DNA of 64,000 bases from Litorimonas sp. WD9-15 (GTDB lineage: Bacteria; Pseudomonadota; Alphaproteobacteria; Caulobacterales; Maricaulaceae), in the NCBI RefSeq assembly GCF_050271975.1, contig NZ_CP189850.1, positions 2,282,551 through 2,346,550 on the forward strand, given 5' to 3'. Position 1 is the stretch's first letter, and every line of letters starts with the position of its first letter. Under the pieces are notes generated by a model. The model searched no databases. It worked only from the letters and a program-made list of their open reading frames with translations, and had not been told where the DNA came from. The translations under genes and the position numbers were made by a program. Shown one piece after another: positions 44,565 to 61,407 of the stretch.

Positions 44565-45320
44565 TTAGATAACAGCGAAGCGTTGACGCGCCATTTCGGA
44601 ATTTCCAAACAGCGAACGGCAGATTTCGTAATCTTCCGGCGTATCCAATTCGGACCAATCGGCACCTTTAATGTTGATTGTATCGATACGTTGTCCGGCC
44701 TGTGCCAGTCCGTGGATCGCAGACAAGAACCAGCTTTTCGTGCCGTCACGTGTCTTCATCAGGCGTTTGAGCTCATTGCGGAATGTCTTGGTACCCTCAC
44801 CCATAAAGCGAAGCATGCCGATGGATTCGCCGTCAGTTTCGGTCAATGGTAACGTCTTACCAATCGCCGTCAGACGCGGCCCATCGAGCGTGACCTTCAT
44901 GTCGTCGCCGTCATAATAACCCTTCTGGTCAATCGTGACGGCAATATGTGTTTTCGGTGCCGCAAGAATCGTTTGGAGCAATTCCGGTGAGAACAGCGTA
45001 TCGCCGTTAATGAGAAGGAAATCTTTCTTCATCGACTTTCGTGCCATCCAGCAAGAAGCCAGATTATCTGCAACTTGGAAGAAAGGGTTATAAAGCGTTT
45101 TGACCTTCGGCCCGGATTCACGCGCATCAATTTCGGCTTTGACCATGTGGCTATTAAAGCCCGTAATGACGGTCGCTGTTTTGACCCCATGTGCGAAAAG
45201 TGTGTCCAATTGCATACCCAAAACGGTCGTATTCCCGATGGGGAGAAGACATTTCGGCAAATTTGTTGTCAGCGGCAGGAGGCGTGATCCGCGGCCTGCG
45301 GCGAGAATAATAGCGTGCAT
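44565..45320 (-). CDS. small sugar/alcohol-phosphate nucleotidyltransferase (NTP_transferase family; LicC/IPCT-like)
   Basis: 251 aa; MHAIILAAGRGSRLLPLT...PKCLLPI signature G-rich loop of nucleotidyltransferases. Confidence 0.7.
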   Translation of the reverse strand: MHAIILAAGRGSRLLPLTTNLPKCLLPIGNTTVLGMQLDTLFAHGVKTATVITGFNSHMVKAEIDARESGPKVKTLYNPFFQVADNLASCWMARKSMKKDFLLINGDTLFSPELLQTILAAPKTHIAVTIDQKGYYDGDDMKVTLDGPRLTAIGKTLPLTETDGESIGMLRFMGEGTKTFRNELKRLMKTRDGTKSWFLSAIHGLAQAGQRIDTINIKGADWSELDTPEDYEICRSLFGNSEMARQRFAVI

Positions 45321-45349: not shown

Positions 45350-46021
45350 CTACTTAGACCAATCAACGGTTTCAAAACCATGAATGGCCGCCTCGCGAGT
45401 GAGTTTCGCATCAGCATTAACGGCCACGCCTTTGTCCGCAAATTTTAAAACGGGCAAGTCGGAATAACTGTCTGAGTACATAGTGATATGCGCTGCCTCA
45501 CGTTGGAAATCATCAAATGTTTCCAAACGTTTCGCCAGCATGTCCAATTTTCCGGGGCCATAGCAATTCTCGGAGCCAAAATAACGGGCGCATTTCCCGT
45601 CTTTCCACGCGAGTTTTGTACAGATCACCTCGTCAATGCCCAAGCGTTTGGCGATGGCTTCAACAACAATATCGGCTCCGGCGGAAGCTATGATAATTTT
45701 ATCCCCGGCTGCACGATGAATATCAAGCTGTCGGACAGCCCCGGGGCGGAGGCCATTTGCAATTTCGTTATCTGCAAACTTGTCGGCTAAAGCCTCCAAA
45801 ACGTCACGGCTTTGCCCAGACAGACTCCACCGTAACATACCCCGTTTGACGGAAATGCGCTCCGTTGAACCGACCTTGTAAATCAACTGTCCAAATCCGG
45901 CTCGCGCCCATAATCCAACTAGTTTCCAAGGCATTCCTTTGACAGAAAGCGAGACATACCGCCCCCACGTCCCACGGGTCGTGATCGTCTCATCCAGATC
46001 AAAAATCGCGTAACACTTCAC
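45350..46021 (-). CDS. HAD-IB subfamily phosphatase
   Basis: 223 aa; motif I FDLDETI; abuts upstream gene (46021/46022). Confidence 0.7.
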   Translation of the reverse strand: MKCYAIFDLDETITTRGTWGRYVSLSVKGMPWKLVGLWARAGFGQLIYKVGSTERISVKRGMLRWSLSGQSRDVLEALADKFADNEIANGLRPGAVRQLDIHRAAGDKIIIASAGADIVVEAIAKRLGIDEVICTKLAWKDGKCARYFGSENCYGPGKLDMLAKRLETFDDFQREAAHITMYSDSYSDLPVLKFADKGVAVNADAKLTREAAIHGFETVDWSK

Positions 46022-48529
46022 CTACGCGTCCATCCAGCTCGCGAGGGGGCGTTTGGCGAGAAGGCCCGCGATCAATGTACAGAAATTGGCGAAAATACAG
46101 ATCCAAGTCCACGCCGCAATCAGGAGGAACGCCCAATAACCTGCACCCGCAAAGACCACTGTAAGCATTATCCCGATCATCATAATGAACGTATTCGGGT
46201 TTCTTCGTGCGATGAAGAACCGAAGACCGGAATTAAAACGCGTCCAGACGTGAATATGAAATCCGTGCTGGCGCATAAAGATACCTTCAATCACGCGGTC
46301 CACGACATAGCCCACCCAAATCGCAAGCAGCGCGATAAAGAGCGGGTCGGACATTTGATACGTTCCGCCCAAACCGATCATCCACGCCCAGTACCAGAAG
46401 GGTGGATGGACGAGATCAATCCCGTGGTCATAAATATTGCCCCAATAGGAATAGGTCATGGTCGTCCGCGCCAGCTTCCCATCAACCGTGTCCAAGAAGG
46501 TCATCGTCCAGCCACACAGGAAACCCAGCGCCCAGAATTCATTCCAGAAGAACCATGTCGCCGCCAGCATCAGGAAGAAACCAACAGTCGTCACCTGATT
46601 GGGAGAAAGGCGCAGCCAAGCGCAGAACCGCGTGACATAAAAAGCCGGAACCGGCCAAAACCACTTCGTCACGAAATCGGTAATGCCTTTGTAAGAGGAC
46701 TTAAACTGACGCCGCATAATATCGAGGATAGGTGTCTCGTTCGTATCCAACACATAGGGCGCCTCCTGCTTGCGCAGGGATTTGATATAACCGTCATTCA
46801 CGTCGGAGGGGGCCGCGACAACGAAGTCTTCCCCTGCAAGTGCGTCAACCGTATTGCCGATGAAGCGCTCTGCCTCTGCCTGCGTAGCTGTAGAGAGACT
46901 GACGATCACACCGTTCTCTACGAGGGCCGTTCGTTCCGTCTTCGCAAAAGACTTGGACAGTTCTGCGGACATAATCCAGTCGACATGGTGCCAAATGCCT
47001 TGATCATTCACCTCAAGTGGAAGCGTGACATCCGCACCCGCTTTCTTGAACGCCCTGACCTGCCATTCCTTCAGGGGCAACCCCCAAATCTTGGCATCGG
47101 TTTCACCGATCAGGCCGAATCCCGGCGCTGTATTTTCCATTGCTGTTTCCGCTCCATGTGTTCGGGCTACGACTTTATCTAAAGCTTGTTTGGCAAGGAA
47201 GAGCAGAAGCCCGACCGCCACAAGATTTCCGGCAATCGCCGCCCATCCCGGTGCCATATGACCGATTGTAAAACTCAGGATGAAAAACGAAACAATATAA
47301 ACGAAAACCCCTGCCCCGCGCGCGTAAATCGCGCGTTCGGGATGATCCGTTGCATAAAGGACCGGGTAGAGAGGCGCCGCCATACCTAAGAGAGCTGCCG
47401 CAGGAACCAGTAAACTCGCAAGCGGCGCAGACTCGATATAATCCTGTGGTAGGAAAGACCCCAATAAACCACCCAAGAAGAGCCATATGAACAGGGAAAC
47501 TGTGAGGCCGAAAACCAGTAATATAACGGCTGTTTTAATGACCAGCCGCCAAATCTTGGCCGCCTCTCCCATCGTGACCATTTTCGCCAATTCCGGATAA
47601 ATAACTTGATCGAGGAGCTTAAACCCTTCGGAAAGAAGCTTCGCAATCTCTTCTGCAATGCGGTAAATCGAAACCCAACCCGCCCCGAACACTGCCATAA
47701 CAAGCAGCACTGGAAGGTGAACATTTGAAGCGGCGAGTGTCGAGTCGATATTTGCCTTAATCACGAAGGGCCAAACGCCCTTGCGCGGATTCAGAATATT
47801 CGATTTCGCCCTTAGAACAGGTTTCAACAATCGCCGTTTCCGCAGCTCAATCGCGGCGAGAAGTGGCATCGTCAGATAATCTGCCAGTGAGCCGATGAAC
47901 CAAGCAAGTAAGAAACCTTCCAGGCCCGCGCCTAATTGCGCAGCAATAACGACGCCGACAAAGCGAACCGCCGGCATAATAACGCCGTGCCACGCCAGAA
48001 CGTCAAAACGGTCAAAAAGACGGAAGACACCTATCGATGTGCCGCGATGGCGCAGGAGTAGCAGTAAGGAGTAGAAAATAACAAGTGTCTGCAATGTGCG
48101 AATATCAACAGACTGCCCGTCACGCTGGAACAGAGCTGGGAAACTTTCCGCAATGAAAACAACAAGCCAGAAACAGCAGACAGCCCCGATAAAGGCGACG
48201 ATCGCCGACAATATATCAAGCTTATAACCAAATTGCAGAAGCCGCGCGAGGCCCGTCGCATCATCATTTTTGACATCATCCATGCCAAACCGAATGATCG
48301 TTTGCCATGCCTGAAACGTCGCGAGTTGTGCGAAGAAAAGGTGATAGGCGTGAATAAAAAGGATAACACCCAAGGCCGCCACACTGAGGAATTTTGCCGC
48401 AATCAAAAGACTGCCAAGACCCAATAAGACTGACAGCACTTTTGAACCGACCATCAGCCCCGTATTGGCGGCGATACGCTTGCCGACGGAGTCAGTTGAA
48501 GCAACGGTCAGATTAGGCGATGTCATCAC
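46022..48529 (-). CDS. fusion protein: N-terminal MprF-type flippase-like polytopic domain + central soluble domain + C-terminal CDP-alcohol phosphotransferase domain
   Basis: 835 aa; ~8 TM helices in first 330 aa; C-terminal DTVDGKLARTTMTYSYWGNIYDHGID = D-G-x2-A-R-x8-G-x3-D-x3-D motif at approx 46400-46495; start overlaps upstream stop (ATGA). Confidence 0.75.
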   Translation of the reverse strand: MMTSPNLTVASTDSVGKRIAANTGLMVGSKVLSVLLGLGSLLIAAKFLSVAALGVILFIHAYHLFFAQLATFQAWQTIIRFGMDDVKNDDATGLARLLQFGYKLDILSAIVAFIGAVCCFWLVVFIAESFPALFQRDGQSVDIRTLQTLVIFYSLLLLLRHRGTSIGVFRLFDRFDVLAWHGVIMPAVRFVGVVIAAQLGAGLEGFLLAWFIGSLADYLTMPLLAAIELRKRRLLKPVLRAKSNILNPRKGVWPFVIKANIDSTLAASNVHLPVLLVMAVFGAGWVSIYRIAEEIAKLLSEGFKLLDQVIYPELAKMVTMGEAAKIWRLVIKTAVILLVFGLTVSLFIWLFLGGLLGSFLPQDYIESAPLASLLVPAAALLGMAAPLYPVLYATDHPERAIYARGAGVFVYIVSFFILSFTIGHMAPGWAAIAGNLVAVGLLLFLAKQALDKVVARTHGAETAMENTAPGFGLIGETDAKIWGLPLKEWQVRAFKKAGADVTLPLEVNDQGIWHHVDWIMSAELSKSFAKTERTALVENGVIVSLSTATQAEAERFIGNTVDALAGEDFVVAAPSDVNDGYIKSLRKQEAPYVLDTNETPILDIMRRQFKSSYKGITDFVTKWFWPVPAFYVTRFCAWLRLSPNQVTTVGFFLMLAATWFFWNEFWALGFLCGWTMTFLDTVDGKLARTTMTYSYWGNIYDHGIDLVHPPFWYWAWMIGLGGTYQMSDPLFIALLAIWVGYVVDRVIEGIFMRQHGFHIHVWTRFNSGLRFFIARRNPNTFIMMIGIMLTVVFAGAGYWAFLLIAAWTWICIFANFCTLIAGLLAKRPLASWMDA

Positions 48530-49263
48530 TGACGGTCTGCCAAAATCTGCTCAACCAGTTCGAGGTCGGACGGTTTATCAACGTCAATCGCAGCTTCGGC
48601 AAATGGGATCAGAACTGGGGCCGCCGTAATGCCGATGCGGCCTGCGGCATATTCAAAGGCGCCGCCCAAAGACAACCGCCCCGCCGCGAATTTGATCCCG
48701 ATACCGACCCCGACTTTTTTGGCCAATTTGAGCGGGTTTTTGCGCAAATGCTGAACCGACTGCCAGAATGCGATGGCTTTTAGGCCGTCCTCATTCGCAA
48801 TATAAAAGAGGTTGCACCCCGATACGGCGTAGTCAGAAAAGCGGAGATAGGTCCGTTTCGTCGTTGGATATTCAGCTTGAATAACCTCTTCTGTCGCGAG
48901 ACCAACACAAATATCTGTCCCTTCGGCCACGGCTCCGGAAACAAACGCTTCAACCATTTCGGGTGCCAGAAGCGCATGATCACAAGTCGTCACAAGGCAG
49001 GGATAGGTATCAATGTCTTCTAACCCCAAAAGGACACTATCCGCAGGTCCCTCGCCGCTGGGCACTTCTGTCAAGTCACTGCCCGAATAGCCGGAGATAT
49101 GAGGTGTCGGCATATTTGCGTCGGACAGCGCCGTACGAACACGGTCCAACATAGAAATGCCCGCCACAGAAATTTCCGCCTTGTGCGATACGCCCTTCGC
49201 CTCACAAAGCGGATCTACCACGCCTGCACGCTGCCCTGCCAAAATGAGAACGCTTGCGACCAT
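48526..49263 (-). CDS. MobA/CofC-like (NTP_transf_3) nucleotidyltransferase
   Basis: Start set at MVASVLILAGQRAG (glycine-rich NT loop); 245 aa; overlaps neighbours at both ends. Confidence 0.55.
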   Translation of the reverse strand: MVASVLILAGQRAGVVDPLCEAKGVSHKAEISVAGISMLDRVRTALSDANMPTPHISGYSGSDLTEVPSGEGPADSVLLGLEDIDTYPCLVTTCDHALLAPEMVEAFVSGAVAEGTDICVGLATEEVIQAEYPTTKRTYLRFSDYAVSGCNLFYIANEDGLKAIAFWQSVQHLRKNPLKLAKKVGVGIGIKFAAGRLSLGGAFEYAAGRIGITAAPVLIPFAEAAIDVDKPSDLELVEQILADRQ

Positions 49264-49264
49264 G

Positions 49265-50419
49265 TCAGCCGATCCGTTTTTCATACATGCGGTAAGTTTT
49301 ATAAGGCACGGCGCTGGCTTGCTCACAAATTGAAATCATGCCGTCATTATCCTCGAGAATCCAAGACAGCTCGCAATAGGTATAGCCCTTTTGGCGCGCG
49401 GCTTCGAACACAGTTTCGCACAGAGCTGCAACAAGTCCGAGCCCCTTGCGCGTGCCGTGATGTTTTGTACGGAGTCCCATCAGCGGCACCCGCGCCTGTT
49501 TCGCCTTCCCAGACTTTAGACGGTAAATAAGCTTGGCCCAATTGAACGGGAAGAGTTTCCCATCAAAGCCCTTTGCCAATTCGTTCAAGTCCGGAATCAG
49601 GCAGATAAAAGCGGCGGGCTCCCCGTCAATCTCGCCTATATAAAAACAATCCGAAGCAATGAGCGGTTTCATCTCTTTGGCGAGGTGCTGGATAGCGTCA
49701 TCCGGGAATTCTAGGAATCCCCAATTATTGCCCCACGCATCGTTGAAGATGCTCATGGCCAATTCGATATCGCGCGTGAAATTCTTTGGATCGAGTTTCC
49801 GCCAGCTTACGGCTTTGGACTTGGTCGCATAATCAACCATCATGCGTGTCACTTTCGGGCGCGGATATCCGGCGTGTAAATCCGCTTGAAAGGCGTACAT
49901 ATCAATCGCTTTGGCATAACCAGCCGTCTCGACCATGTCTTGATAATAGGGTTTGCCATATGACATCAGGACGACATTGGGACTATCAAACCCTTCAACA
50001 AGGAGGCCGACCTCCTCATTCACGCCCCATTGCGCAGGGCCGACCAATCGCTTTCGGCCTTTGTCTTTGGCCCATTCATCGGCCCTATTGAGGAGCATTT
50101 TGCCGAGTTCCGGATCATTTTCGCAATCAAAATAGCCAAAAAAGGCTGTTTCAACATCGTGCTGTCGATCATGGGCGGGATTTGTAAAAACCGCAATCCG
50201 GCCAATAATCGCGTCTCCTCTAACCGCTAGAAATAACGAGCGGTCCAAGTCTTTCGCAGCTGGATTCTTTACAGGGTCTAGCTGCTCTTTGCGCTCCAAC
50301 CTTAATGGCGGCGCCCAACTCGGATCCCCCCGATAAAGATCATAGGGCAAGTCTAGGAATTGCTGGACCTGCGCCTTTGTTTGAACGGAGACGATTTTGA
50401 TGTCGGCATTGGTCGGCAA
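49265..50419 (-). CDS. GNAT-fold N-acyltransferase, two-lobed ~384 aa (candidate lipid N-acyltransferase)
   Basis: Length and paired GNAT-like halves; first gene of the coupled operon. Confidence 0.55.
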   Translation of the reverse strand: MPTNADIKIVSVQTKAQVQQFLDLPYDLYRGDPSWAPPLRLERKEQLDPVKNPAAKDLDRSLFLAVRGDAIIGRIAVFTNPAHDRQHDVETAFFGYFDCENDPELGKMLLNRADEWAKDKGRKRLVGPAQWGVNEEVGLLVEGFDSPNVVLMSYGKPYYQDMVETAGYAKAIDMYAFQADLHAGYPRPKVTRMMVDYATKSKAVSWRKLDPKNFTRDIELAMSIFNDAWGNNWGFLEFPDDAIQHLAKEMKPLIASDCFYIGEIDGEPAAFICLIPDLNELAKGFDGKLFPFNWAKLIYRLKSGKAKQARVPLMGLRTKHHGTRKGLGLVAALCETVFEAARQKGYTYCELSWILEDNDGMISICEQASAVPYKTYRMYEKRIG

Positions 50420-50466: not shown

Positions 50467-51015
50467 TCAGGAAAGGTCAACCAGATGGATGTCGATGTCG
50501 ACGCCCTCCATCGGGACGTCAAATCCTGTCTCAGAGAATTTTGGAAGCCTTAGGGATTTGATTTCAGGGTTGTTTGACAAACCATAAGGCTCTTTGGGCT
50601 TAAAATTCCAAGCCTTTTTCAACCGGCGATCTCCGTCCTTATCGTGATAGCCGACGAGTGCATACTCGCCGGGCAGAGGCAGATTGATACAGACTTTGAC
50701 GGAACCGTCCTCTGCTGGAACACGAATACGGCGAAGTTTTCCTTTTTTCTTGAGAAAATCGCGCTCGCCAAACAGTTCTACCTTCACCATTCCAACTTTG
50801 GAGACATTGTGAATGGTGGCCCGAATCTGCAGAGCGCCCGGCACGCACGTGTCGGCTTTGTCTCGAGGATAGAGTTCTAAGCCGCGCTCCACACCTATTT
50901 CAGATAAGGTTTCTCGGAACTCATCATTGTCATCAGACCCATTATCCTGCGCGACCGCAAAACCGGCCGAGCCCATCATGCTCAAGATGACGAAAGCTTT
51001 AGACAGTTTTCTCAT
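50467..51015 (-). CDS. DUF2141-family secreted protein
   Basis: Start at MRKLSKAFVILSMMGSAGFAVAQ signal peptide; YALVGYHDKDGDRRL...PKEPYGLSNNPE matches DUF2141 core. Confidence 0.6.
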   Translation of the reverse strand: MRKLSKAFVILSMMGSAGFAVAQDNGSDDNDEFRETLSEIGVERGLELYPRDKADTCVPGALQIRATIHNVSKVGMVKVELFGERDFLKKKGKLRRIRVPAEDGSVKVCINLPLPGEYALVGYHDKDGDRRLKKAWNFKPKEPYGLSNNPEIKSLRLPKFSETGFDVPMEGVDIDIHLVDLS

Positions 51016-51133
51016 GTAGGCATTTGATTTCACGACGGTGTTTCCTTAAGCCTCACTGAACCCAAAAAAGGTCCTTAACAGCCATATGGGAAACGATTCC
51101 TCTGTCGTAAAGGCGTAATCACAGACCTGTCAT

Positions 51134-52369
51134 ATGGGCCGATTGAACCGATATATCCTGAAAAAAGCCTCGACAAGTGTCGGTGGGCTGGTCGTTTTCG
51201 CCTGTTGCGTTCTGCTAATGGAACGCCTGTTACGTATTTTCGAAATTGTTACAAATTCGACAAATCCTGCTTCTGACGCGACAAATATGATCGTGAACCT
51301 CCTGCCCTATTATCTCGGCATGGCGGTTCCGATGGCGTTGCTACTTGGCACAATCATCACGGTGGACCGCTTGTCAAAGTCGTCTGAATTGACCGCGGCT
51401 CTTGGTGCAGGCGTATCTCTTTTCCATATGACAAAGCCGTTCTTATGGCTCGCAATTTTCCTTGCAGGCCTGACCATGTTTATCGAAGGCTATATGCAGC
51501 CTGTTGGACGGTATAATTATCGCCAGGTTCTTCACGTCGTGAAACAGCAGAGTTTTACGGCGGCCTTACGAGAAGGCACGTTTACGGAAGTCTTAGACCG
51601 TACTTTTTTTGCGGGCACAGATTCGCCTGATGGCTCCATCGGACCAATCTTCATTTACGAAATGGTGGATGATGTGAACGCGAACGGAGAGCCCGTCAAA
51701 GGCTATCGCATTACAACGGCGGGCAAAGGCGAAATTACAATTCGCGATAAAGTCGATAATGCAAAAACAGGCGCACCCGTTTTGAACCTTGCAGAAGGGC
51801 GCGGTTTTCAAGTTTTGAATAGCACACTTTCGGGACAACTTGAATTCGGCGAGTTGACTGTTGCGGGCGCGACGAGTGAGACGGAATATCGCGTACGCGG
51901 TGATGATGAGCGGGAAATGACATCACTGGAGCTCTTTGCGAACCGTAAAGGTTCTGCTACCTCAAATATTGATCAAAACACAAATAACGCAGCGCTTCAC
52001 CTTCGCGTTTCCAAAGCCGTCCTTCTGATTTTACTTCCCTTCATCGCCGTGCCCTTCGGCCTGAACTACGGCCGAAACCCCTCCTCTGCCGGAATTTTTG
52101 TTGGCGTGGTCTTTCTGGTCTCACTTCAAAAAGCACTGGAATTTGGACAGTCATTGGGGGCGGCTGGAAAAATCCCGCCTTGGCTCGGCATTTGGGGGAT
52201 TATTGGTGTCGTCGCGATCTTCGCCTTCTTCCTGTTTTGGAAAAGCGCCTATAAAATGGGTCAGCCGCCTCTCACCTCATTCTCGCATTGGGTGGGACAC
52301 ATCAAAGGCGAGCTGCTTGGTGCGCTTAAGAAACTGACCCGCGACCGAAGGATCCCACAGGATGTATAG
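51134..52369 (+). CDS. lptF: LPS export ABC transporter permease LptF (YjgP/YjgQ family)
   Basis: 411 aa; MGRLNRYILKK... six TM with large periplasmic beta-jellyroll insert. Confidence 0.85.
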   Translation: MGRLNRYILKKASTSVGGLVVFACCVLLMERLLRIFEIVTNSTNPASDATNMIVNLLPYYLGMAVPMALLLGTIITVDRLSKSSELTAALGAGVSLFHMTKPFLWLAIFLAGLTMFIEGYMQPVGRYNYRQVLHVVKQQSFTAALREGTFTEVLDRTFFAGTDSPDGSIGPIFIYEMVDDVNANGEPVKGYRITTAGKGEITIRDKVDNAKTGAPVLNLAEGRGFQVLNSTLSGQLEFGELTVAGATSETEYRVRGDDEREMTSLELFANRKGSATSNIDQNTNNAALHLRVSKAVLLILLPFIAVPFGLNYGRNPSSAGIFVGVVFLVSLQKALEFGQSLGAAGKIPPWLGIWGIIGVVAIFAFFLFWKSAYKMGQPPLTSFSHWVGHIKGELLGALKKLTRDRRIPQDV

Positions 52370-53441
52370 GTTTGGCCTCTACATATCGAAGACTTTTCTC
52401 TTCACATGGCTGACCGTCGTCTTTGGGTTTCTAACATTGATCGGCCTGCTCGACAGTCTCGCGAATGGCGGAGATATTGTCGCCGATGGCAGTGGTTTTG
52501 CAGGAACGTTCAAATATATGTTTCTGCGCGCCCCTGTGATTTTTGACCGTATCTTTGTCTTCACCCTCGTCGTCGCAATCCTATTGACCTTCGTTAAACT
52601 CATCCGGCAACATGAGTTGGTTGCCCTGCTTGGCTTTGGCATATCCGCCACAAAGCAAGTCTGGCTGATGACGCCCGCCGTTGTCGGTGCGGCTATCATG
52701 TCGGTCATCTTTATCGACCTCGCCATGGCCCCCGCCGTTCGTTCATTACAAGCTTGGGGGATTGGCGAATATAAGGTGAAAAATATAACGGCGGAAAACC
52801 CGCTCTGGCTGGAAGATCGTGGTCGTATCGTGCGGGCCACAGACCGCCTTGGTTATAATAGTCTTGGTAATCTCAAGTTCTTCTTCCGAAGCGAAACCGG
52901 AGAAGTCGAACGCATTTGGCATGCCGAAAAGGCGGATTATCAAGACCCCAACTGGCTGTTGACTAATGTCGAGCAACTGGATGTCAAAGACGCGGACGGG
53001 GAGTCGCGAGAGCTTCGACCCGTCGCAGGAACGCGGGTTTGGGAAACGCGACAAACACCCACATCAATCGCCCGCCTCGCCGCAGAGCCGCGGGACCTCT
53101 CATTGTCCGAAATGCGGAATTTCTCCAAACGCGGCAATAGCGGGTCAAAACCAAGCTTTGCTTATAAATTCTGGCACGCACACCGTCTCACACGTCCCCT
53201 CGCCGCTTTCATATTGCTCATTGCCTGTGCTGCTCTCATGCAGCGGACAGGCCGTGAAGATACGGGCGACAAGACACTCATCATCGGCATTACGATGGGT
53301 TTTGTATTCCTCATCATTGACGGCGCGATGGCGACCTTTGCGGCGTCGGGCGGGATGGGTGTCCTACCCGCGATTGCGATACCACTGCTTCTCTTTGGAG
53401 TTACGGGCGCATATCTTCTGTTGAAAACAGAAAGTCTGTAA
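52362..53441 (+). CDS. lptG: LPS export ABC transporter permease LptG
   Basis: 359 aa; MYRFGLYISKTF...; 8-nt overlap with lptF. Confidence 0.85.
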   Translation: MYRFGLYISKTFLFTWLTVVFGFLTLIGLLDSLANGGDIVADGSGFAGTFKYMFLRAPVIFDRIFVFTLVVAILLTFVKLIRQHELVALLGFGISATKQVWLMTPAVVGAAIMSVIFIDLAMAPAVRSLQAWGIGEYKVKNITAENPLWLEDRGRIVRATDRLGYNSLGNLKFFFRSETGEVERIWHAEKADYQDPNWLLTNVEQLDVKDADGESRELRPVAGTRVWETRQTPTSIARLAAEPRDLSLSEMRNFSKRGNSGSKPSFAYKFWHAHRLTRPLAAFILLIACAALMQRTGREDTGDKTLIIGITMGFVFLIIDGAMATFAASGGMGVLPAIAIPLLLFGVTGAYLLLKTESL

Positions 53442-53449: not shown

Positions 53450-54349
53450 ATGAGACGGCTCTTCATAGTCAATTCTTTGTCAGAGCGCGTCGCACGTAAG
53501 GGCTCCGTTCTGCATGAACTCTACGGCGATACAGACGATATTTTTTATCTGGATCCTTTCGACTACCTCCCATCCACTGTTGAGAGAGCAGCGATAGACA
53601 AGGTCGAACATGTCATCATTGAAGGCGGAGACGGGACTGTTCAGGGCGTCATATCCGAATTTCTCCGACAAGAAGACAGGTTCGCAAATTTTCCAAAATT
53701 CTCCATCATCCCGGGTGGCATGACAAACCAGGTTGCCAAGAATATAGGTTTTGCGTCGGCGAGCCCACATAGAGTTAAAACAAAACTCGCGTCAGAACTC
53801 TCACCAACTAACAACCCACTTCTCATCGCGTCTGAACTGGACGGCCCTGATTATTCCGGTTTTCTCTTCTCGACTGGCGCGATTCCGCAGATCACACGCT
53901 ATACGACCGGCCAATTGCACCGCAAAGGGATTGGCGGATCATTGGCCGTGTTTGGCGGTATTCTCAAAGGTATTCGTGGCGACGACGCGACGCTGATGCA
54001 ACTGACGTCTGTTCATCTTGATGATCTCTATGAAGGTGAACATCTGGGCACAGTTATCACGACCCTTCCCGGTCTCATCTTGGGTCTCGACCCGTTTTGG
54101 GGAGAAGAAGAGGCTCCGCTTCGCCTGACTTGGGTGACGTCAGGTTATAAAAAACTGGGCCGCAATATTCTTGGCTTATGGCTGGGTCGCAAATCAGTTG
54201 ATCGCCGCAAAGACGGCATCTTCTCAGTCTGTCGTAACGAAATTAATTACAGCTATTCCGGCCCCGTCGTGTTGGACGGCGAATTTCTTTCATTCCCGTC
54301 AGGCAAATTTACTGTCCGCGCCAGCCGTCCTGTGACATTCCTACGATAG
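53450..54349 (+). CDS. diacylglycerol-kinase catalytic-domain (DAGK_cat/YegS/LCB5) lipid kinase; candidate ceramide/sphingoid kinase
   Basis: 299 aa; IIEGGDGTV (GGDGT ATP-site motif), IPGGMTNQ. Confidence 0.75.
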   Translation: MRRLFIVNSLSERVARKGSVLHELYGDTDDIFYLDPFDYLPSTVERAAIDKVEHVIIEGGDGTVQGVISEFLRQEDRFANFPKFSIIPGGMTNQVAKNIGFASASPHRVKTKLASELSPTNNPLLIASELDGPDYSGFLFSTGAIPQITRYTTGQLHRKGIGGSLAVFGGILKGIRGDDATLMQLTSVHLDDLYEGEHLGTVITTLPGLILGLDPFWGEEEAPLRLTWVTSGYKKLGRNILGLWLGRKSVDRRKDGIFSVCRNEINYSYSGPVVLDGEFLSFPSGKFTVRASRPVTFLR

Positions 54350-55270
54350 ATGAGCACGGTTCTGGATATCATAAAGGGTGAAACACTCGACCCGCCGGCG
54401 CGCGTCACTGCTGTTATGGACGCGATTCGCGCCCGTCACACCGATCGTGTTCAGGCCATGGTGTATTATGGCAGCTCATTACGAGAGCTGGATAACTCGG
54501 AAAAAATGCTCGATTTCTATGTGCTAGTAGATAGCTACCGTAAAACCCATGGTACCGGACCACGCGCCCTCATAAATCGCCTCATACCTCCCGCCGTTTA
54601 TTACCTCGAAAGAGAGAATGAGGACGGCACGCTAAGCACATGCAAATATTCAATTTTAAGCCTGTCGGAATTTGAAAGGCGCTGTAGTTCCAAGGCCTTC
54701 CTCTCACAGGTATGGGGACGCTTTTCGCAACCCTGCGCAGTCCTCTGGTCTAAGGAAGAGACCGTCTTGGATCGTGTCTGGGCGGGACGCGTTAAAGCTG
54801 TTGAAACGATGGCAGCGGAAACAGCGCCACTTCTCGAAGGACGCGCAACTGCCGCAGTATTTTGGGGGCGCGGATTTTACGAGAGCTACCAAACTGAGCT
54901 TCGCCCCGAAAGCTCTACCGGACGCGCAGAGGAAATCGTCGCCCGATTTGCGGAACGCTATGAAGCGATCACGACAGCTCTTTACGGCGCACCGGATGAA
55001 AACGGTAATTATGAAATTCCGCAGAAACCTATCGGAAAAGCCAAGCGCAGATGGTTCTTGCGACGTCTCTTAGGCAAGCCTGCCGCCGCGATCCGCGTGC
55101 TGCTCGGAGCAGCGACATTTGATGGTGGGATTGATTATGTCGCCCGAAAGGTAGAGAATCACTCCGGAGTCAAATTGGACCCCACACCTGCGCAACGTCG
55201 TCATCCGGTGCTACATTCACCGTTTTTGTTCTGGAAACTATGGCGAAAAGGCGCTTTTCGGGCAAATTAG
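54350..55270 (+). CDS. Tam41/Mmp37-like nucleotidyltransferase-fold protein (mitochondrial-type CDP-diacylglycerol synthase homologue)
   Basis: 306 aa; MVYYGSSLRELDNSEKMLDFYVLVDSY...YYLE pattern resembling Tam41 family; abuts kinase gene (54349/54350). Confidence 0.5.
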   Translation: MSTVLDIIKGETLDPPARVTAVMDAIRARHTDRVQAMVYYGSSLRELDNSEKMLDFYVLVDSYRKTHGTGPRALINRLIPPAVYYLERENEDGTLSTCKYSILSLSEFERRCSSKAFLSQVWGRFSQPCAVLWSKEETVLDRVWAGRVKAVETMAAETAPLLEGRATAAVFWGRGFYESYQTELRPESSTGRAEEIVARFAERYEAITTALYGAPDENGNYEIPQKPIGKAKRRWFLRRLLGKPAAAIRVLLGAATFDGGIDYVARKVENHSGVKLDPTPAQRRHPVLHSPFLFWKLWRKGAFRAN

Positions 55271-55362: not shown

Positions 55363-55566
55363 ATGAGAGACTTTACCAGTTACGCCAATCATATCACCTT
55401 AACGGTGTTGATTTCAGTCCTATTAATCGGGTCATGGATAGCTGGGCAAACATCTCGTGCTGGTGGAGATACCGACACAATCCTCATTGCAACATTTATG
55501 TTATTAATCCCTTGCGCATTAGCAGCGCTTTATCTGCAAACCCGCGCAGAAGAAGAAGAGGGCTAA
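55363..55566 (+). CDS. small hypothetical membrane protein
   Basis: 67-aa ORF with two hydrophobic helices. Confidence 0.25.
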   Translation: MRDFTSYANHITLTVLISVLLIGSWIAGQTSRAGGDTDTILIATFMLLIPCALAALYLQTRAEEEEG

Positions 55567-55567
55567 C

Positions 55568-56800
55568 CTATTCCGCGGCCTGCATCCGGATCATCATACC
55601 GGACATAATTTCGGCCTGACTGGCCTTCATTCGCCCAAATGCATCAATGATAATATTCACATCGCTTTCCGTATGCGCCGCAGAGAGTGAGATACGGAGC
55701 AAAGACGAGCTCTGCGGTGTTCCGGGTGGAACAGCGAGGTTCACGTAAACGCCGTTTTCCATCAGCCAATTCCATTCCATCGCTGCAATGCCTTCATTAG
55801 GACGACGCACAGCGATGACGGGACTCGGGTCAGCGCAGAGGTCGAAATCCAAAGCCTTCAACCCGGCATGAAGCTGTTGCGCCCGCGCTTTCAAATTCTC
55901 GCGCAAGTACCCACCCGTCTTGACCTTCTCAACGGCGACACGCGCCGCGCAAATATTGGCGGGCGTGGCAGACGCCGTAAACATATAGGGGCGCATAACT
56001 TTGCGTGTAATTTCAAATTGAGGATGTTTGGACGCACAAAATCCACCGACAGAAGCAAGGGATTTTGAGAATGTGCCCGATATAAAGTCAACCTGATCCA
56101 AAACGCCCTGCTCTTCCGCAATGCCGCAGCCAGTGGGGCCGAACACACCGTAGGAATGCGCTTCATCGATAAAGAGATAGCCGCCATGACGGTGCGTCAC
56201 ATCGAGAAATTCATCCACGGGCGCAATATCACCGAACATGGAATACATACCTTCAATCACAACAAGGGCATTGCCGCCCTCAATCTCACCTTGTCGGCGG
56301 AGACGTTTATCCAGATCTTCCGGGTTATTATGGCGGAAACGAATGGTCGACGCATTGGTCAGGCGCGATCCATCAATGATACAGGCATGCGCATCTGCAT
56401 CCATAAAGATGACATCTTTATCACCGGCCAGCCCCGAAATCGCGGCAAGGTTCGTCTGATAGCCCGTCGTAAACACGATACAGGACGGCATTCCGAAATG
56501 TTCTGCCAAGGCCTGTTCCAAATCTGTGTGTTCTGCATATGTTCCGTTTGCAACGCGGGATCCCGTCGTACCCGTACCGTGATCATCAACAGCAGTTTTC
56601 GCGGCGGCGCGACAATCCTCATCGAATGTCAGGCCGAGATAGTTATTCGTACCAGCCAGAAGAATTTCGCGGTTACCGATACGCCCGCGGGTCGCGGACA
56701 AAATATCATCGAATTTCACGCCCAGCGCATCGGCGCCGATCTTCATCATCATATCAACGCGCGTTTGAAGCGGTGCGTATTTGTCAAACAAAGCCGTCAT
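55568..56800 (-). CDS. spt: serine palmitoyltransferase (alpha-oxoamine synthase family, PLP)
   Basis: 410 aa; long colinear matches to Sphingomonas SPT (ILLAGTNNYLGLTFDED, IRFRHNNPEDLDKRL, VIEGMYSMFGDIAP, DEAHS..GTFSKS PLP-Lys, YVNLAVPPGTP). Confidence 0.85.
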   Translation of the reverse strand: MTALFDKYAPLQTRVDMMMKIGADALGVKFDDILSATRGRIGNREILLAGTNNYLGLTFDEDCRAAAKTAVDDHGTGTTGSRVANGTYAEHTDLEQALAEHFGMPSCIVFTTGYQTNLAAISGLAGDKDVIFMDADAHACIIDGSRLTNASTIRFRHNNPEDLDKRLRRQGEIEGGNALVVIEGMYSMFGDIAPVDEFLDVTHRHGGYLFIDEAHSYGVFGPTGCGIAEEQGVLDQVDFISGTFSKSLASVGGFCASKHPQFEITRKVMRPYMFTASATPANICAARVAVEKVKTGGYLRENLKARAQQLHAGLKALDFDLCADPSPVIAVRRPNEGIAAMEWNWLMENGVYVNLAVPPGTPQSSSLLRISLSAAHTESDVNIIIDAFGRMKASQAEIMSGMMIRMQAAE

Positions 56801-57048
56801 CAGGACATCAATCCTTTTGCGGCCAGTGAAAGTTCGCCAACGGTTTTAATGTCGGACACCATCTCCATCGGAATTGAGATATCGTAATGATCTTCCAACT
56901 CCATAATAAAATCGAAAACGGCCACCGAATCGACCTCCAGATCCGACATAATGCCAGAAGACCGCTCAATCGGCAGGCCCTTGGGATTATACGGCTTCAA
57001 AAGCTCACAAATCTTATCGTAAATCTCTGACTCAGTGGGGGCGGTCAT
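56800..57048 (-). CDS. dedicated acyl carrier protein
   Basis: 82 aa; DLEVDSVAVFDFIMELE with phosphopantetheinylated Ser context; stop overlaps spt start. Confidence 0.8.
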   Translation of the reverse strand: MTAPTESEIYDKICELLKPYNPKGLPIERSSGIMSDLEVDSVAVFDFIMELEDHYDISIPMEMVSDIKTVGELSLAAKGLMS

Positions 57049-57119
57049 GGCAGTCTTTCATTTCAAACGTGCTCGTCGCTATCAAAGACAGCGCACGGCG
57101 TAAAGCCGTGCCCTCAGAC

Positions 57120-58910
57120 CTATTTTGACGCGCTATCTGCAACAACTCTTAAAGTTTCATCCGATTGCAAGTCGATGATCGCGCCTTCGAGGAACTTTGC
57201 CTTCACACGGGCACGGGAAAGCTTGCCGGAGCTGGTGATAATCATCGTTGATTTTGGCACCAACATCAGGCGGACGGGCACACCAACCTCCAGGCGAATC
57301 GCCGCCGTGACAGCCGTATAAATTTCTTCCAATAGCTTCGGGTTACGCGTTCGACATTCAAGCAATAGCATAATGTCTTTTTCATCACCCGCACCCCCAA
57401 TGGCAAACGCACAGGCCCGACCACACCGATGTGGCGCGGCAGCTTGTGCGGCCCATTCAATATCCTGTGGCCAAATATTCCGGCCATGCCAGAGAATCAG
57501 GTCCTTAAAACGTCCTGTGACAACCAATTGGCCTTCATGCCAATATCCGGCATCGCCTGTGTCCAACCACCCGTCTTTTGAGAAAGAAGCTTCCGTCGCC
57601 TGCGTATTTCGGAAATAGCCGGGAGACACGGACGGTCCACGGAGACAAACACGGCCAACTTGCTTTTCAGACAAAACGTTATCGTCAAAATCACGAATTT
57701 CGATTTCATGATCCGGTAGGACATGTCCGCAAGCCACAAAAGACCGTCGGCTTTCCTCGCGCGTGACCTCAGACGCTTCAACAGCCTCAGACGTACGCGC
57801 GTAGCGCTCCATATCGATTGTGTGTGTCTTTAGCCCCTGCCCCAATGGCGCAAAAGTTGCGGCCAATGTTGTTTCTGCCAAACCGTATGACGGTGTAAAA
57901 ACGCCCTGCCCAAAACCCATATCTGCGAATAGGTTTTGAAAATCTGTCAGAGGTTCAGGACGCACCATATCACCGCCAATCCCGGCCACACGCCAACTCG
58001 ACAAATCAAGCTCACGATCTTCACGCCAACGCCGCACGCAGAGTTCGTAGCCAAATGTGGGTGAGTAAGAGAGCGTGCCCTTATGATCAGAGATCAATTG
58101 CAGCCATGTAATAGGCCGGCGCGTAAAGTCCTGTGGATCAATGTAATCAACGGACATTTGTGCCGTCATCGGCGCGATCAAAAACCCGATCAAACCCATA
58201 TCATGATAGAGCGGGAGCCAAGAGGTCCCCCGGTCTGTCTCGGTCATTTTCATACCGTGTTTCGTAATCGCCAAGCAATTGGCACAGACGGATTTCTGCG
58301 TTCCAATAATACCCTTTGGCGAAGAAGAGGAACCAGAAGAATATTGAATATAACAGAGATCATCCTTACCAAATGGTCGCAAAACATCTCCCTTTGGCAA
58401 ATTCCCAACAGCCTCAAATGTCATCACTGGAATCGCCTGATCATTTAAGGCCGAACGCATAATGCCGTCCATTGATTCCGGGCATAAAAGTGCGTGAAAA
58501 TCACCCGTATCAGCCATCCGTTGCAATTGCCGTTCATACGAACTCCGCCCGCCCAGCGTAACAGGCAGCGGTACAGGGGCAGCGACAAGACCTGCATATT
58601 GGCAGGCGAAAAACATAACCGCGAATTCGGGAGTCGAAACGGCCGCAATTCCAATACGTGAATTTTTCTTGGCGAATGGAACAAGGCGCTTTGCCATCTC
58701 AATAGCTTGGCTATGAAGATCAGCATAAGAAAGCGCCGCCTTTGGACGTGCTTTACCATCGAAATATGACAGTCCCGTCTTTGCTGTTGCGGCATAGTCG
58801 AGTGCATCACACAGGGTTTCAAAATCGCCATGTCGAATGGGGACACCCCGTTCAGTCGGCAGAACCTGGATGGTTTCGGCTTCAGTCATACTCATATCTC
58901 GCTCAGTCAC
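57120..58910 (-). CDS. acyl-ACP synthetase / fatty-acyl-AMP ligase (ANL adenylating superfamily)
   Basis: 596 aa; AMP-binding motif YIQYSSGSSSSPKGI; directly upstream of ACP-spt. Confidence 0.8.
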   Translation of the reverse strand: MTERDMSMTEAETIQVLPTERGVPIRHGDFETLCDALDYAATAKTGLSYFDGKARPKAALSYADLHSQAIEMAKRLVPFAKKNSRIGIAAVSTPEFAVMFFACQYAGLVAAPVPLPVTLGGRSSYERQLQRMADTGDFHALLCPESMDGIMRSALNDQAIPVMTFEAVGNLPKGDVLRPFGKDDLCYIQYSSGSSSSPKGIIGTQKSVCANCLAITKHGMKMTETDRGTSWLPLYHDMGLIGFLIAPMTAQMSVDYIDPQDFTRRPITWLQLISDHKGTLSYSPTFGYELCVRRWREDRELDLSSWRVAGIGGDMVRPEPLTDFQNLFADMGFGQGVFTPSYGLAETTLAATFAPLGQGLKTHTIDMERYARTSEAVEASEVTREESRRSFVACGHVLPDHEIEIRDFDDNVLSEKQVGRVCLRGPSVSPGYFRNTQATEASFSKDGWLDTGDAGYWHEGQLVVTGRFKDLILWHGRNIWPQDIEWAAQAAAPHRCGRACAFAIGGAGDEKDIMLLLECRTRNPKLLEEIYTAVTAAIRLEVGVPVRLMLVPKSTMIITSSGKLSRARVKAKFLEGAIIDLQSDETLRVVADSASK

Positions 58911-59246: not shown

Positions 59247-59321
59247 TGGTGGGCGATACTGGGATTGAACCAGTGACCCCTGCCGTGTGAAGGCAGTGCT
59301 CTCCCGCTGAGCTAATCGCCC
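59247..59321 (-). tRNA. tRNA-Val (anticodon CAC)
   Basis: Reverse complement GGGCGATTAGCTCAGCGGGAGAGCACTGCCTTCACACGGCAGGGGTCACTGGTTCAATCCCAGTATCGCCCACCA folds as canonical cloverleaf, CCA encoded. Confidence 0.85.
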
Positions 59322-59380: not shown

Positions 59381-60421
59381 TCAGTCGGATAATCCGAGTC
59401 GAGCTCTCGCCATGGAGTCGGCAACGACGGTCGTCGCAACCTGATGTTCTGCCGCCTCATCGAAAATCGATTTCAATGTTGTTTCAAGACCTTCCAGCTT
59501 TCCCCTCACCCAATTCGGGTCATAGGTGCCACTGACTTCTGCGGCGACATTGATTATGCCGCCTGCATTGATGACGTAATCCGGCGCATAGAGAATGCCG
59601 CGTTGCCGGCACGCCTCCCCCATCTCCGGCGTGGCGAGTTGATTATTGGCCGCGCCGGCAATGATACCCGCCCGGATATGCGGGAGAGTTTTTTCCGACA
59701 CCGCGCCGCCCAAGGCGCAGGGGGCGTAGATATCGACGGTTTCTTTATGAATGTCCTGCGGGTCAACGAGCATAGCACCCAGCTCATCTTGCGCCTTATC
59801 CAAAACAGCGCGGTTGATATCTGTCACGACAAGTTGACAGCCCGCGCCGTGGAGATGCTCACAAAGCGCATAGCCAACGTGACCGAGCCCCTGCACGGCA
59901 ACGCGAAGGCCTCTTAAAGATTCGAGACCAAATTTGTGGCGCACCGCAACCTTTATGCCGCGAAACACACCTTCTGCGGTGACTGGGGACGGGTCACCCG
60001 AAGCCGCGGGCCCGGTATCAAGACCAGCCACATAATCCGTTTGCGTCTTAATTATCCGCATATCATCCGGAGACACGCCTACATCTTCCGCTGTGATATA
60101 AGCACCACCAACGGCCTCGACGGCCCGACCATAAGCGGCGAATAAGGCGTCCCGATCAAACATGGTTTCCGGGCGCAAAATCACGGCTTTTCCGCCGCCT
60201 AATTCCAATCCCGCCATCGCATTTTTATAGCTCATAGCTTTTGACAGACGGAGCGCATCCGTCAGGGCGTCATCCTGATTGATGTAAGACCAGAGCCGCG
60301 TACCACCCGCAGACGGACCGAGCGTCGTATTGTGCACGGCGATGATAGCGCGCAATCCTGTTGCCTTATCGGTGAAGACATGCACGCCTTCATGGTCATC
60401 ATAATCGGGATGGTCGAACAT
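59381..60421 (-). CDS. Leu/Phe/Val-type amino-acid dehydrogenase (Glu/Leu/Phe/Val DH family)
   Basis: 346 aa; GLELGGGKAVI catalytic Lys motif, Rossmann VQGLGHVGY. Confidence 0.8.
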   Translation of the reverse strand: MFDHPDYDDHEGVHVFTDKATGLRAIIAVHNTTLGPSAGGTRLWSYINQDDALTDALRLSKAMSYKNAMAGLELGGGKAVILRPETMFDRDALFAAYGRAVEAVGGAYITAEDVGVSPDDMRIIKTQTDYVAGLDTGPAASGDPSPVTAEGVFRGIKVAVRHKFGLESLRGLRVAVQGLGHVGYALCEHLHGAGCQLVVTDINRAVLDKAQDELGAMLVDPQDIHKETVDIYAPCALGGAVSEKTLPHIRAGIIAGAANNQLATPEMGEACRQRGILYAPDYVINAGGIINVAAEVSGTYDPNWVRGKLEGLETTLKSIFDEAAEHQVATTVVADSMARARLGLSD

Positions 60422-60423
60422 GG

Positions 60424-61407
60424 TCAGCCGTCTTTCAATGTGGTCAGGCCTGCCGCAGCCGTCTTAAGGAGGGAAAGCGCCATCGCGCCACCTGTACCAT
60501 CACCAATGTTTATGCCGAGGTCCAAAATTGGCGACAGTTGCAGACGCGAGAGCAAGGCATCATGGGCAGGTTCGGCAGAGCAATGCGACGCGATACAATG
60601 GGCGACAGATTTTGGGTCAATTGCGTGAAGAACTGCCGCCGCCGCACAACTGACATAGCCGTCCAGTAGAACGGGTATGCGCTGATGTCCCGCCGCCAGA
60701 ATCGCGCCGATCATCCCCGCAATATCACGCCCGCCAAAGATACGAAGCGTATCGAGTGGATCATCAAGATGGCCGCTATGCGCCTCTATTCCGGCTTCCA
60801 CCGAAGAAATACGCGCCTTCGCCGCCTGTCCACCGGCCCAGTAATTAGCCGCACCCCCATAGAGAGACATTGCGATTCCGGCGGCTGCCGTCGCTGCGCC
60901 GTACCCTGCATTGCCCAATATAATGACGTCCGCGCCTTCGGCGACGACTTCCATTCCGAAAGCAATTGCGGCGGCGCAATCCCGTTCTGACAAGCTGGGC
61001 TCACGTGTGAAATCCGCGCTCGGATATTCTAAACCGAATTCGTAGACTTTGAACGCCGCGCCCAAATCGGATGACATGCCGCGAACGGCCGCCGCACCTT
61101 CGGTCAAGCTTACGACACGGGCTTTTGAGGCTTCGATGATATCCGCATCTGACATTTGCGACGCCACGCCATGTGTTCCCGCAAAGACGGCGATGAGCGG
61201 TCTGGACAGGCGGGGTAGCTGTCCGCCCTGAATGCGGGCAATCTCCGTCAAGGCCCCCTCCAAAGTGCCGAGTGGACGCAAACCCCGCCCTAATGTCTTG
61301 AAGATTGCGCCGAGATCATCGGCCGACACACCGTCCACGGGCGGCATTGACCGCACGAGGTCGCGGATATCGTCAAAAGGACGGCCCTGTTTGTTAGCTT
61401 CGGTCAT
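60424..61407 (-). CDS. cobT: nicotinate-nucleotide--dimethylbenzimidazole phosphoribosyltransferase
   Basis: 327 aa; CobT family pattern (AVFAGTHGV..., ILGNAGYGAATAA..., GDGTGGA). Confidence 0.85.
   Translation of the reverse strand: MTEANKQGRPFDDIRDLVRSMPPVDGVSADDLGAIFKTLGRGLRPLGTLEGALTEIARIQGGQLPRLSRPLIAVFAGTHGVASQMSDADIIEASKARVVSLTEGAAAVRGMSSDLGAAFKVYEFGLEYPSADFTREPSLSERDCAAAIAFGMEVVAEGADVIILGNAGYGAATAAAGIAMSLYGGAANYWAGGQAAKARISSVEAGIEAHSGHLDDPLDTLRIFGGRDIAGMIGAILAAGHQRIPVLLDGYVSCAAAAVLHAIDPKSVAHCIASHCSAEPAHDALLSRLQLSPILDLGINIGDGTGGAMALSLLKTAAAGLTTLKDG

Follow-up and report, generated by a model that had tools for sequence, protein, structure and literature searches.

The stretch of DNA considered here, 64,000 nucleotides of contig NZ_CP189850.1 from Litorimonas sp. 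WD9-15 and hereafter referred to as the window, carries three co-oriented minus-strand open reading frames (ORFs), aasR, acpR, and spt, which are predicted to constitute a single operon and very probably encode the committed step of sphingolipid synthesis in Caulobacterales of the Algimonas/Litorimonas/Hellea group. The upstream gene, aasR (57120-58910, minus strand), encodes a putative fatty acyl-AMP ligase (FAAL), a specialised acyl-acyl carrier protein synthetase, of 596 aa when counted from the first GTG; this longest ORF begins at 58910, whereas the public gene call uses the ATG at 58895 and gives a product of 591 aa. Located 71 nt further downstream is acpR (56800-57048, minus strand), encoding an 82-aa candidate dedicated acidic acyl carrier protein (ACP), followed by spt (55568-56800, minus strand), encoding a 410-aa predicted serine palmitoyltransferase (SPT). 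The coordinates of all three match those given in a first-pass annotation of the window made from the letters alone. The acpR stop codon and the spt start codon share one base in the sequence TGATG (context TCC TGATG ACG), and such an overlap, here at position 56800, is the usual sign of translational coupling, so that spt is probably coupled to acpR. Plus-strand ORFs that overlap the region, such as that at 56156-56887, were dismissed as antisense artefacts of a mechanical ORF list.

Spt contains a full-length class I/II aminotransferase domain (Pfam Aminotran_1_2, 149 bits) and passes the curated NCBIfam model NF047599, "serine palmitoyltransferase" (544 bits, cut-off 500), while remaining below the cut-offs of the rival models for bioF (294, cut-off 426), Kbl (278, cut-off 460), ALAS (222, cut-off 339), and CqsA-type enzymes (188, cut-off 428). 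Compared with all PDB sequences, it is most similar to the SPTs of Sphingomonas wittichii (2x8u, 358 bits) and Sphingomonas paucimobilis (2jg2, 354 bits), which are thus its closest solved structures, followed at a distance by the Sphingobacterium SPT (241 bits), KBL (194 bits), ALAS (172 bits), cysteate acyltransferase (166 bits), and BioF (at most 164 bits). It differs from the Sphingomonas enzymes in that NF047599 describes other proteobacterial SPTs, and the Sphingomonas-type NCBIfam SPT model is missed (412 bits against a cut-off of 670). An alignment of S. wittichii SPT, E. coli Spt, and five related SPTs places His138, Asp212, His215, Lys246 (the pyridoxal phosphate (PLP) lysine, in GTFSKS), and Arg369 at the catalytic positions of Sphingomonas SPT (His159, Asp231, His234, Lys265, and Arg390 in S. 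paucimobilis). An identity as BioF, Kbl, ALAS, CqsA, or cysteate acyltransferase was ruled out for the PLP enzyme by the curated cut-offs together with the PDB ranking. The protein is therefore best regarded, on sequence grounds, as a serine palmitoyltransferase of the SPT clade of the alpha-oxoamine synthase superfamily, one that would condense L-serine and a long-chain acyl thioester to 3-oxosphinganine.

AcpR scores 34.5 bits with Pfam PP-binding (cut-off 20.8) and falls below the NCBIfam cut-offs for all housekeeping ACPs, the best being 51.6 bits against 70. It has a pI of 4.2, and its phosphopantetheine attachment site, Ser41 in DLEVDSV, aligns with the serine of the E. coli cluster ACP and with that of AcpP. 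AcpR is accordingly a small acidic ACP distinct from the housekeeping AcpP, and it may be selectively acylated by its cognate AasR and used by Spt. AasR has a Pfam AMP-binding domain (164 bits) and, with 666 bits, exceeds the cut-off of 600 for the NCBIfam fatty acyl-AMP ligase model NF006624. Its best PDB match is the E. coli FAAL 3pbk (446 bits), which has the same N-terminal sequence as the FAAL from the spt cluster of E. coli (locus L081), and residues 22-586 are aligned with only short gaps. This alignment spans a 70-residue stretch between YGLAET (residue 342) and GRVCLRGPS, where FAAL structures have the FAAL-specific insertion. By analogy with its characterised counterpart, AasR would load AcpR and not CoA or AcpP.

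That counterpart is CC_1165 of Caulobacter, an acyl-ACP synthetase designated AasR that loads AcpR only and not CoA (Padilla-Gomez et al., 2022; PMC9386255). Caulobacter and the window have the same core, comprising AasR (CC_1165), AcpR (CC_1163), and Spt (CC_1162), with acpR and spt in an operon and aasR upstream. Acyl-AcpR is the preferred substrate of the SPTs from Caulobacter, E. coli B, and S. wittichii, acpR-spt operons are found across the alpha-, beta-, and gamma-proteobacteria, and E. coli B Spt has been shown to make 3-oxosphinganine from serine (PMC9386255). Sphingomonadaceae differ in that their aasR is unlinked from acpR-spt (PMC9386255). The E. coli B-type cluster, with the order yghO-FAAL-epimerase-ACP-spt-lptG-lptF, shares with the window a FAAL (41% identity), an ACP (37%), an Spt (47%), and a YghO-type acyltransferase (36%), as well as a flippase homologue and an adjacent second lptFG pair; it differs in keeping an epimerase/CerR gene between the FAAL and ACP genes and in being without adjacent CerK, CpgC, and CDP-alcohol transferase head-group genes. 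The correspondence with Caulobacter was judged from the domains and order of the genes, with E. coli as a proxy in sequence comparisons. The first-pass annotation had described an SPT colinear with that of Sphingomonas, including the PLP-lysine region, a co-oriented 82-aa ACP overlapping spt at 56800, and a preceding ANL-family acyl-AMP ligase. All three descriptions were borne out, and its interpretation is supported by the identity of the FAAL, ACP, and Spt to the E. coli cluster proteins and by the characterised AasR, AcpR, and Spt. A grouping of the PLP enzyme with BioF or Kbl, which it had named as a contrary outcome, was not seen in the curated model scores. The Caulobacter-type arrangement that it proposed stands as far as the aasR/acpR/spt set is concerned, but not at the position of cerR, where the window has a 71-nt spacer instead.

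An exact match to the SPT is present on contig CANNER010000001.1 of the metagenome-assembled genome GCA_947503715.1. A scan for SPT with one genome per species yielded 80 related loci, all from Caulobacterales. The closest belong to Algimonas, Litorimonas, and Hellea (up to 95% SPT identity), and identities of 51-71% were found for Robiginitomaculum, Henriciella, Parvularculaceae, and others. Linkage of the core genes is almost invariant: acpR lies directly upstream of spt in 79 of the 80 loci, the exception (L037) being cut at the spt start, and aasR is linked to acpR-spt in 78, the other two loci ending short. Between aasR and acpR, 60 of the 78 loci that cover both genes have a tightly packed cerR, a gene of the NDUFA9-like, NAD-dependent epimerase/dehydratase family encoding about 300 aa. 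In the window, this position is occupied by the 71-nt aasR-acpR spacer (57049-57119, minus strand), which was read from the sequence and by RNA folding. The spacer consists, in order, of a GC-rich hairpin (GCACGGC-TTTAC-GCCGTGC), GCTGTCTTTG, and a second hairpin ending just upstream of the acpR start codon; it contains a terminator-like match at 57111-57093 and folds with -27.3 kcal/mol (z = -3.2), a value that none of 200 shuffles equalled. Local alignments revealed no cerR remnant in these 71 nt, being no better than those of shuffles (z at most 2). With six CerR proteins as queries (from E. coli and five relatives), tblastn returned only noise at E<=10 across the 64-kb window, and no SDR/epimerase Pfam domain was detected in the scanned gene-like window ORFs of at least 150 aa, in agreement with the earlier remark that no reductase of the short-chain dehydrogenase/reductase (SDR) or epimerase type is visible in the window.

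Absence of cerR was compared among loci L001-L014, L018, L027, L045, L057, and L058, and no CerR homologue was found within 10 kb of any cerR-less locus. The 17 closest loci that cover the junction (SPT identity of at least 88%, including Litorimonas cladophorae KCTC 23968) have a related spacer of 64-71 nt, with a conserved core of TTTGGTATCGC/TCTTTGATAGC preceded by a hairpin, and the sharing of this homologous spacer points to one ancestral cerR deletion. L018 is likewise without cerR and is, in every protein, closest to the cerR-positive loci L021 and L025, whereas L027 retains the last ~40 codons of cerR and is the sole locus with such a C-terminal remnant. Given the ancestral deletion, the placement of L018, and the remnant in L027, cerR has disappeared from the operon on at least three occasions among Hellea, Litorimonas, and Algimonas. 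All cluster genes are nonetheless intact inside the cerR-less clade, within which spt has a dN of 0.05-0.08, a saturated dS, and a dN/dS of ~0.02; values were otherwise obtained for one lptG and one cerK comparison only, the remaining pairs being undefined because synonymous sites are saturated. The strong purifying selection on spt argues that the pathway was kept functional long after the loss of cerR. Faster evolution of CerK or bCerS following that loss was considered and rejected, CerK being the fastest protein in every comparison whether cerR is present or not. Also rejected as replacements for cerR were a gene of the Glu/Leu/Phe/Val-dehydrogenase family and a CobT-like gene (window 59381-61407, minus strand). 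Many loci of the Hellea/Litorimonas/Algimonas group have both genes upstream of aasR, whether or not cerR is present. The NCBIfam model nearest to the dehydrogenase-family gene is that of tryptophan dehydrogenase ScyB, and its score is below the cut-off.

The trio sits within an island of ~14.5 kb (44.5-59 kb of the window) that appears to be most of a complete phosphosphingolipid island and so to extend beyond the core. Convergent with spt is a gene for a cpgC-like (CC_1161-like) nucleotidyltransferase (54350-55270, plus strand), assigned to the Tam41 fold from its predicted structure. The protein has no Pfam match even at E<=5; its AlphaFold model (pLDDT 84, pTM 0.82) has as its top Foldseek matches in the PDB the Tam41 CDP-DAG synthases 6ig2 and 7ecd (E 5e-7, TM 0.50-0.59), and the UniRef name of the L. 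cladophorae orthologue begins "Phosphatidate cytidylyl". Adjoining it, and in the same position in more than 40 related loci, is a gene for a cerK/cpgB-like (CC_1160-like) lipid kinase (53450-54349, plus strand; Pfam DAGK_cat, 39.9 bits) with a GGDG ATP-binding motif at residues 59-62. Two permease genes follow, one lptF-like (51134-52369, plus strand; Pfam LptF_LptG, 198 bits) and one lptG-like (52362-53441, plus strand; LptF_LptG, 147 bits). These score below the NCBIfam LptF and LptG equivalog cut-offs (200 against 230 and 175 against 240, respectively), as would be expected of divergent paralogues, and from their position in the cluster they are read as a putative LptF2/LptG2-type pair.

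The remainder of the island lies on the minus strand. A bcerS gene (49265-50419) encodes a YghO-family GNAT N-acyltransferase, a homologue of the bacterial ceramide synthase (Pfam Acetyltransf_1, 29.6 bits) with 36% identity to E. coli YghO over 377/380 residues (tblastn, E 6e-83); a genome-wide search for bcerS had been proposed at the outset, and a homologue thus turned up within the window itself, 5 kb from the trio. Its neighbor in all 47 related loci covering both genes is the gene for a DUF2141 protein (50467-51033; Pfam DUF2141, 76 bits) with an N-terminal signal-like segment, and even in Parvularculaceae, where the island is rearranged to the order spt-DUF2141-bcerS, this adjacency is kept. 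On the other side of bcerS is a gene for a MobA/CofC-like (CC_1153-like) nucleotidyltransferase (48526-49326; Pfam NTP_transf_3, 35.5 bits), the true start of which is probably near 49260, just past the bcerS stop, as in relatives, where it starts 3-15 nt after bcerS. The next gene (46022-48529) encodes an 835-aa fusion of a flippase and a CDP-alcohol phosphotransferase, recognized through similarity to the E. coli flippase and through Pfam. The N-terminal half (approximately residues 1-455) is a Wzx-type multi-pass flippase with about 10 hydrophobic segments in residues 24-450, and the E. coli cluster flippase ("LPS biosynthesis protein") matches 47201-48493 with 25% identity (E 2e-28); the C-terminal part matches Pfam CDP-OH_P_transf (residues 642-804) and bears the full DxxDGxxAR...GxxxDxxxD signature at residues 680-705. 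The fusion is present in the clade of the window and in L018, L021, L025, L031, L033, and L038, the flippase half occurs alone in L015, L016, L019, L020, and others, and Henriciella (L063) has the two as separate adjacent genes. Such an architecture suggests that head-group transfer is coupled with lipid flipping. The island is completed by genes for a HAD-IB family, phosphoserine-phosphatase-like phosphatase (45350-46021; Pfam HAD, 90.6 bits; TIGR01490, 111 bits against a cut-off of 98), syntenic in 29 related loci, and a sugar/alcohol-phosphate (CC_1152-like) nucleotidyltransferase (44565-45320; Pfam NTP_transferase, 51.9 bits), which weakly resembles the inositol-1-phosphate cytidylyltransferase portion of IPCT/DIPPS. 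Closer relatives repeat the gene order aasR-acpR-spt / cpgC-cerK-lptG-lptF / DUF2141-bcerS-NTP-flippase-HAD.

Caulobacter has a 17-gene cluster, CC_1152-CC_1168, that is needed for ceramide, ceramide phosphoglycerate, and a proposed Lpt-like export (PMC11324152). The genes of the island correspond to this cluster almost one for one. Counterparts in the window, by domain and synteny, include those of bCerS (CC_1154), LptF2/LptG2 (CC_1156/1155), CerK (CC_1160), CpgC (CC_1161), the CDP-alcohol transferase (CC_1159/CpgA), the flippase (CC_1166), and the nucleotidyltransferases (CC_1153/1152), so that a CerK-type GGDG kinase, a Tam41-fold CpgC-like protein, and a CDP-alcohol transferase are all present. 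These assignments are in keeping with published descriptions of CC_1161 as Tam41-like and CC_1153 as MobA/CofC-like (PMC11324152 S1 Text), of the GGDG motif in Caulobacter CpgB (PMC10331486), and of YghO as the E. coli counterpart of CC_1154 (aca/bCerS) (Fig. 9 of PMC9386255); CC_1152 has the same Pfam domains as the protein encoded at 44565-45320 (PMC11324152 S1 Text). The window differs from Caulobacter in the absence of cerR (CC_1164), which lies there between aasR and acpR, in the fusion of the flippase with the CDP-alcohol transferase, and in having the HAD-IB phosphatase and DUF2141 genes in place of some Caulobacter accessory genes, the phosphatase standing instead of the CC_1158 phosphoesterase and DUF2141 not being listed in the Caulobacter cluster paper. 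The core trio and the island thus belong to a type of system that has already been described, and the only unusual point is the clean loss of cerR from the operon in this marine lineage.

Gene identities, motifs, synteny, and purifying selection are what the sequences show directly; from these, and by orthology to the experimentally tested proteins of Caulobacter and E. coli B, a pathway can be proposed. AasR would adenylate a free long-chain fatty acid and transfer it to the phosphopantetheine carried by Ser41 of AcpR, whereupon Spt, with PLP bound at Lys246, would catalyse the decarboxylating condensation of L-serine and acyl-AcpR to 3-oxosphinganine. The bCerS homologue encoded 5 kb away would N-acylate this product to an oxo-ceramide, and the 3-keto reduction that is the CerR step in Caulobacter would be performed by a reductase encoded elsewhere in the genome. 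The CerK-like kinase would then phosphorylate C1. More tentatively, the Tam41-like enzyme may activate the ceramide-1-phosphate with CTP, and the CDP-alcohol transferase may link the activated lipid to an alcohol, with the two nucleotidyltransferases and the HAD phosphatase supplying that acceptor. The resulting phospho head group would be anionic and of the ceramide-phosphoglycerate type, although a HAD phosphatase in place of CC_1158 and some weak IPCT/DIPPS-like similarities would also allow a different one. Export of the lipid to the outer membrane could be carried out by the fused flippase domain and LptF2/LptG2, again with less assurance than the earlier steps.

Several considerations weigh against the sphingolipid reading. 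It is drawn from gene content; cerR, one of a five-gene set (aasR, cerR, acpR, spt, bcerS) needed for ceramide in Caulobacter, is found neither at its canonical place nor anywhere else in the window; and Pfam domains matching LptC2, CC_1158, CC_1157, and CC_1167 were not found in the scanned window ORFs. The ceramide-phosphoglycerate type of head group is extrapolated from Caulobacter, in which the individual enzyme reactions of the head-group pathway are themselves not yet established (PMC11324152). Finally, Spt has Val357 at the position of Sphingomonas Arg378 (LAVPPGTP compared with TARPPATP), a residue that contacts the serine carboxylate in the Sphingomonas enzyme. This substitution, together with the detection at 166 bits of cysteate-C-fatty acyltransferase, an enzyme close to SPT, might suggest that the trio makes a different long-chain base, for instance one derived from cysteate as a precursor of capnine/sulfonolipids, or a 1-deoxy base with alanine or glycine as its source. 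Such a product is nevertheless very improbable. The SPT match is twice as strong as that of the cysteate enzyme, and Leu, Ile, or Val occupies the Arg378-equivalent position in E. coli Spt and in all of the relatives compared, which argues that Val357 is a trait of the subfamily rather than a defect; the E. coli B protein is the very enzyme shown to make 3-oxosphinganine from serine. A CerK-like kinase would, moreover, need a C1 hydroxyl, which presumably only a serine-derived base provides. This subfamily, including the acyl-AcpR-preferring E. coli B Spt, may bind its substrate differently from Sphingomonas SPT. Still more remote is the notion that the PLP enzyme is an alpha-oxoamine synthase of the BioF, Kbl, or ALAS type without a role in sphingolipid synthesis, with its ACP and ligase drawn from some other acyl-transfer pathway. 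A shared fold gives these families significant scores with Spt (bioF and Kbl models, and KBL in the PDB), but the SPT equivalog is the only one passed, the models for BioF, Kbl, and ALAS all fall short of their cut-offs by over 100 bits, SPT structures outscore KBL by ~160 bits, and spt is coupled to an AcpR-type ACP gene amid homologues of bCerS, CerK, CpgC, and LptF2/G2, as in the characterised cluster, so that this possibility can be regarded as effectively refuted.

With the serine palmitoyltransferase assignment of Spt retained, the question becomes how the 3-keto group is reduced. The most likely answer, favored with reasonable though far from complete confidence and as pure inference, is that this step falls to a reductase whose gene lies in another part of the genome. 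Linkage of cerR to spt is not required according to published work, cerR being unlinked in Sphingomonas, Zymomonas, and Gluconobacter (PMC9386255); the absence documented here covers the window and the flanks of the loci rather than the whole genomes of the clade; and repeated loss of cerR would be easiest with, and indeed predicted by, a redundant copy elsewhere. The other possibility is that the lineage has no CerR-type reductase, and that it produces 3-oxo sphingolipids, namely phospholipids based on oxo-ceramide, or that a non-homologous reductase has taken over. In favor of this view, the canonical cerR is gone from the window, the 17 closest relatives that cover its position, and L018, with only a remnant in L027; neither the 64-kb window nor the 10-kb surroundings of the cerR-less loci hold a CerR homologue; and no relocated copy was found among the CerR homologues of which the context was checked, the two top database matches traced to contigs and four metagenome loci all having the canonical context. 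Caulobacter cerR mutants accumulate oxidised ceramide (PMC11087976), from which it follows that bCerS works without prior reduction, and the remaining pathway is under strong purifying selection. A protein search with the nearest CerR, that of L015, gave no L. cladophorae or Algimonas protein among the best 120 matches, but its coverage is incomplete: although L. cladophorae proteins are named in the database searched, the search overlooked the CerR of L015 itself and that of Hellea balneolensis, and the lack of an L. cladophorae match is for this reason weak evidence. Loss of every CerR-type reductase from the lineage is consequently considered rather unlikely, as is the corresponding proposal that Algimonas and L. 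cladophorae produce sphingolipids for the outer membrane in the absence of any CerR orthologue, having excised cerR while spt, aasR, bcerS, cerK, and the export genes stayed under strong purifying selection for a time long enough to saturate synonymous sites; this proposal is held with doubt to a similar degree. Were it true that no CerR exists anywhere in these genomes, the phosphosphingolipids would have 3-oxo-ceramide as their backbone, or CerR would have been replaced by an unrelated reductase. Either outcome would be relevant to a question still open for bacterial ceramide synthesis, namely at what stage and at what site the reduction takes place.

A marine member of the Caulobacterales, and with it the whole Hellea/Litorimonas/Algimonas group, joins the likely producers of sphingolipids, with a gene set of the Caulobacter anionic-sphingolipid type. 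The anionic sphingolipids of Caulobacter affect outer-membrane stability, sensitivity to polymyxin, and the dispensability of lipid A. Repeated loss of cerR has provided a natural set of deletions, among them that of a type strain that can be cultured, L. cladophorae KCTC 23968, and represents a modest but testable lead. The 835-aa fusion offers support of the Rosetta-stone type for coupled head-group transfer and translocation, and for CC_1166-type proteins as the missing sphingolipid flippase, while DUF2141 emerges as a conserved neighbor of bcerS without an assigned function.

Upstream of the operon, a tRNA-Val(CAC) gene (59247-59321, minus strand; ARAGORN, Rfam tRNA 66 bits) lies between the Leu/Phe-dehydrogenase-like gene and aasR, and the operon therefore begins directly downstream of the tRNA gene. 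The stretch of ~335 nt from tRNA-Val to aasR is likely to be the promoter and 5' region. It includes a single weak sigma-70-like match (59033-59006) that is no better than shuffled expectation, and neither promoter nor terminator pattern counts exceeded that expectation. Apart from the tRNA, no known regulatory RNA (Rfam) was found in the operon and its leader, and folding gave no unusual RNA structure in the spt-cpgC intergenic region. The public annotation places a 67-aa ORF in this intergenic region (55363-55566, plus strand), which has no family match and is probably spurious. Flanking the island immediately on its other side are two more genes of lipid modification, for a cyclopropane-fatty-acid synthase (43302-44522, minus strand) and an OlsC/LpxO-like acyl hydroxylase (42481-43443, minus strand). 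Elsewhere in the window, ARAGORN reported an unusual "tRNA-???" of 83 nt, the anticodon of which has two bases (ca), directly before tRNA-Ile(TAT) (30801-30959, plus strand), and two large tandem proteins with RTX calcium-binding repeats (913 and 906 aa, with 11-13 HemolysinCabind repeats each) are encoded at 16508-22180 on the minus strand.

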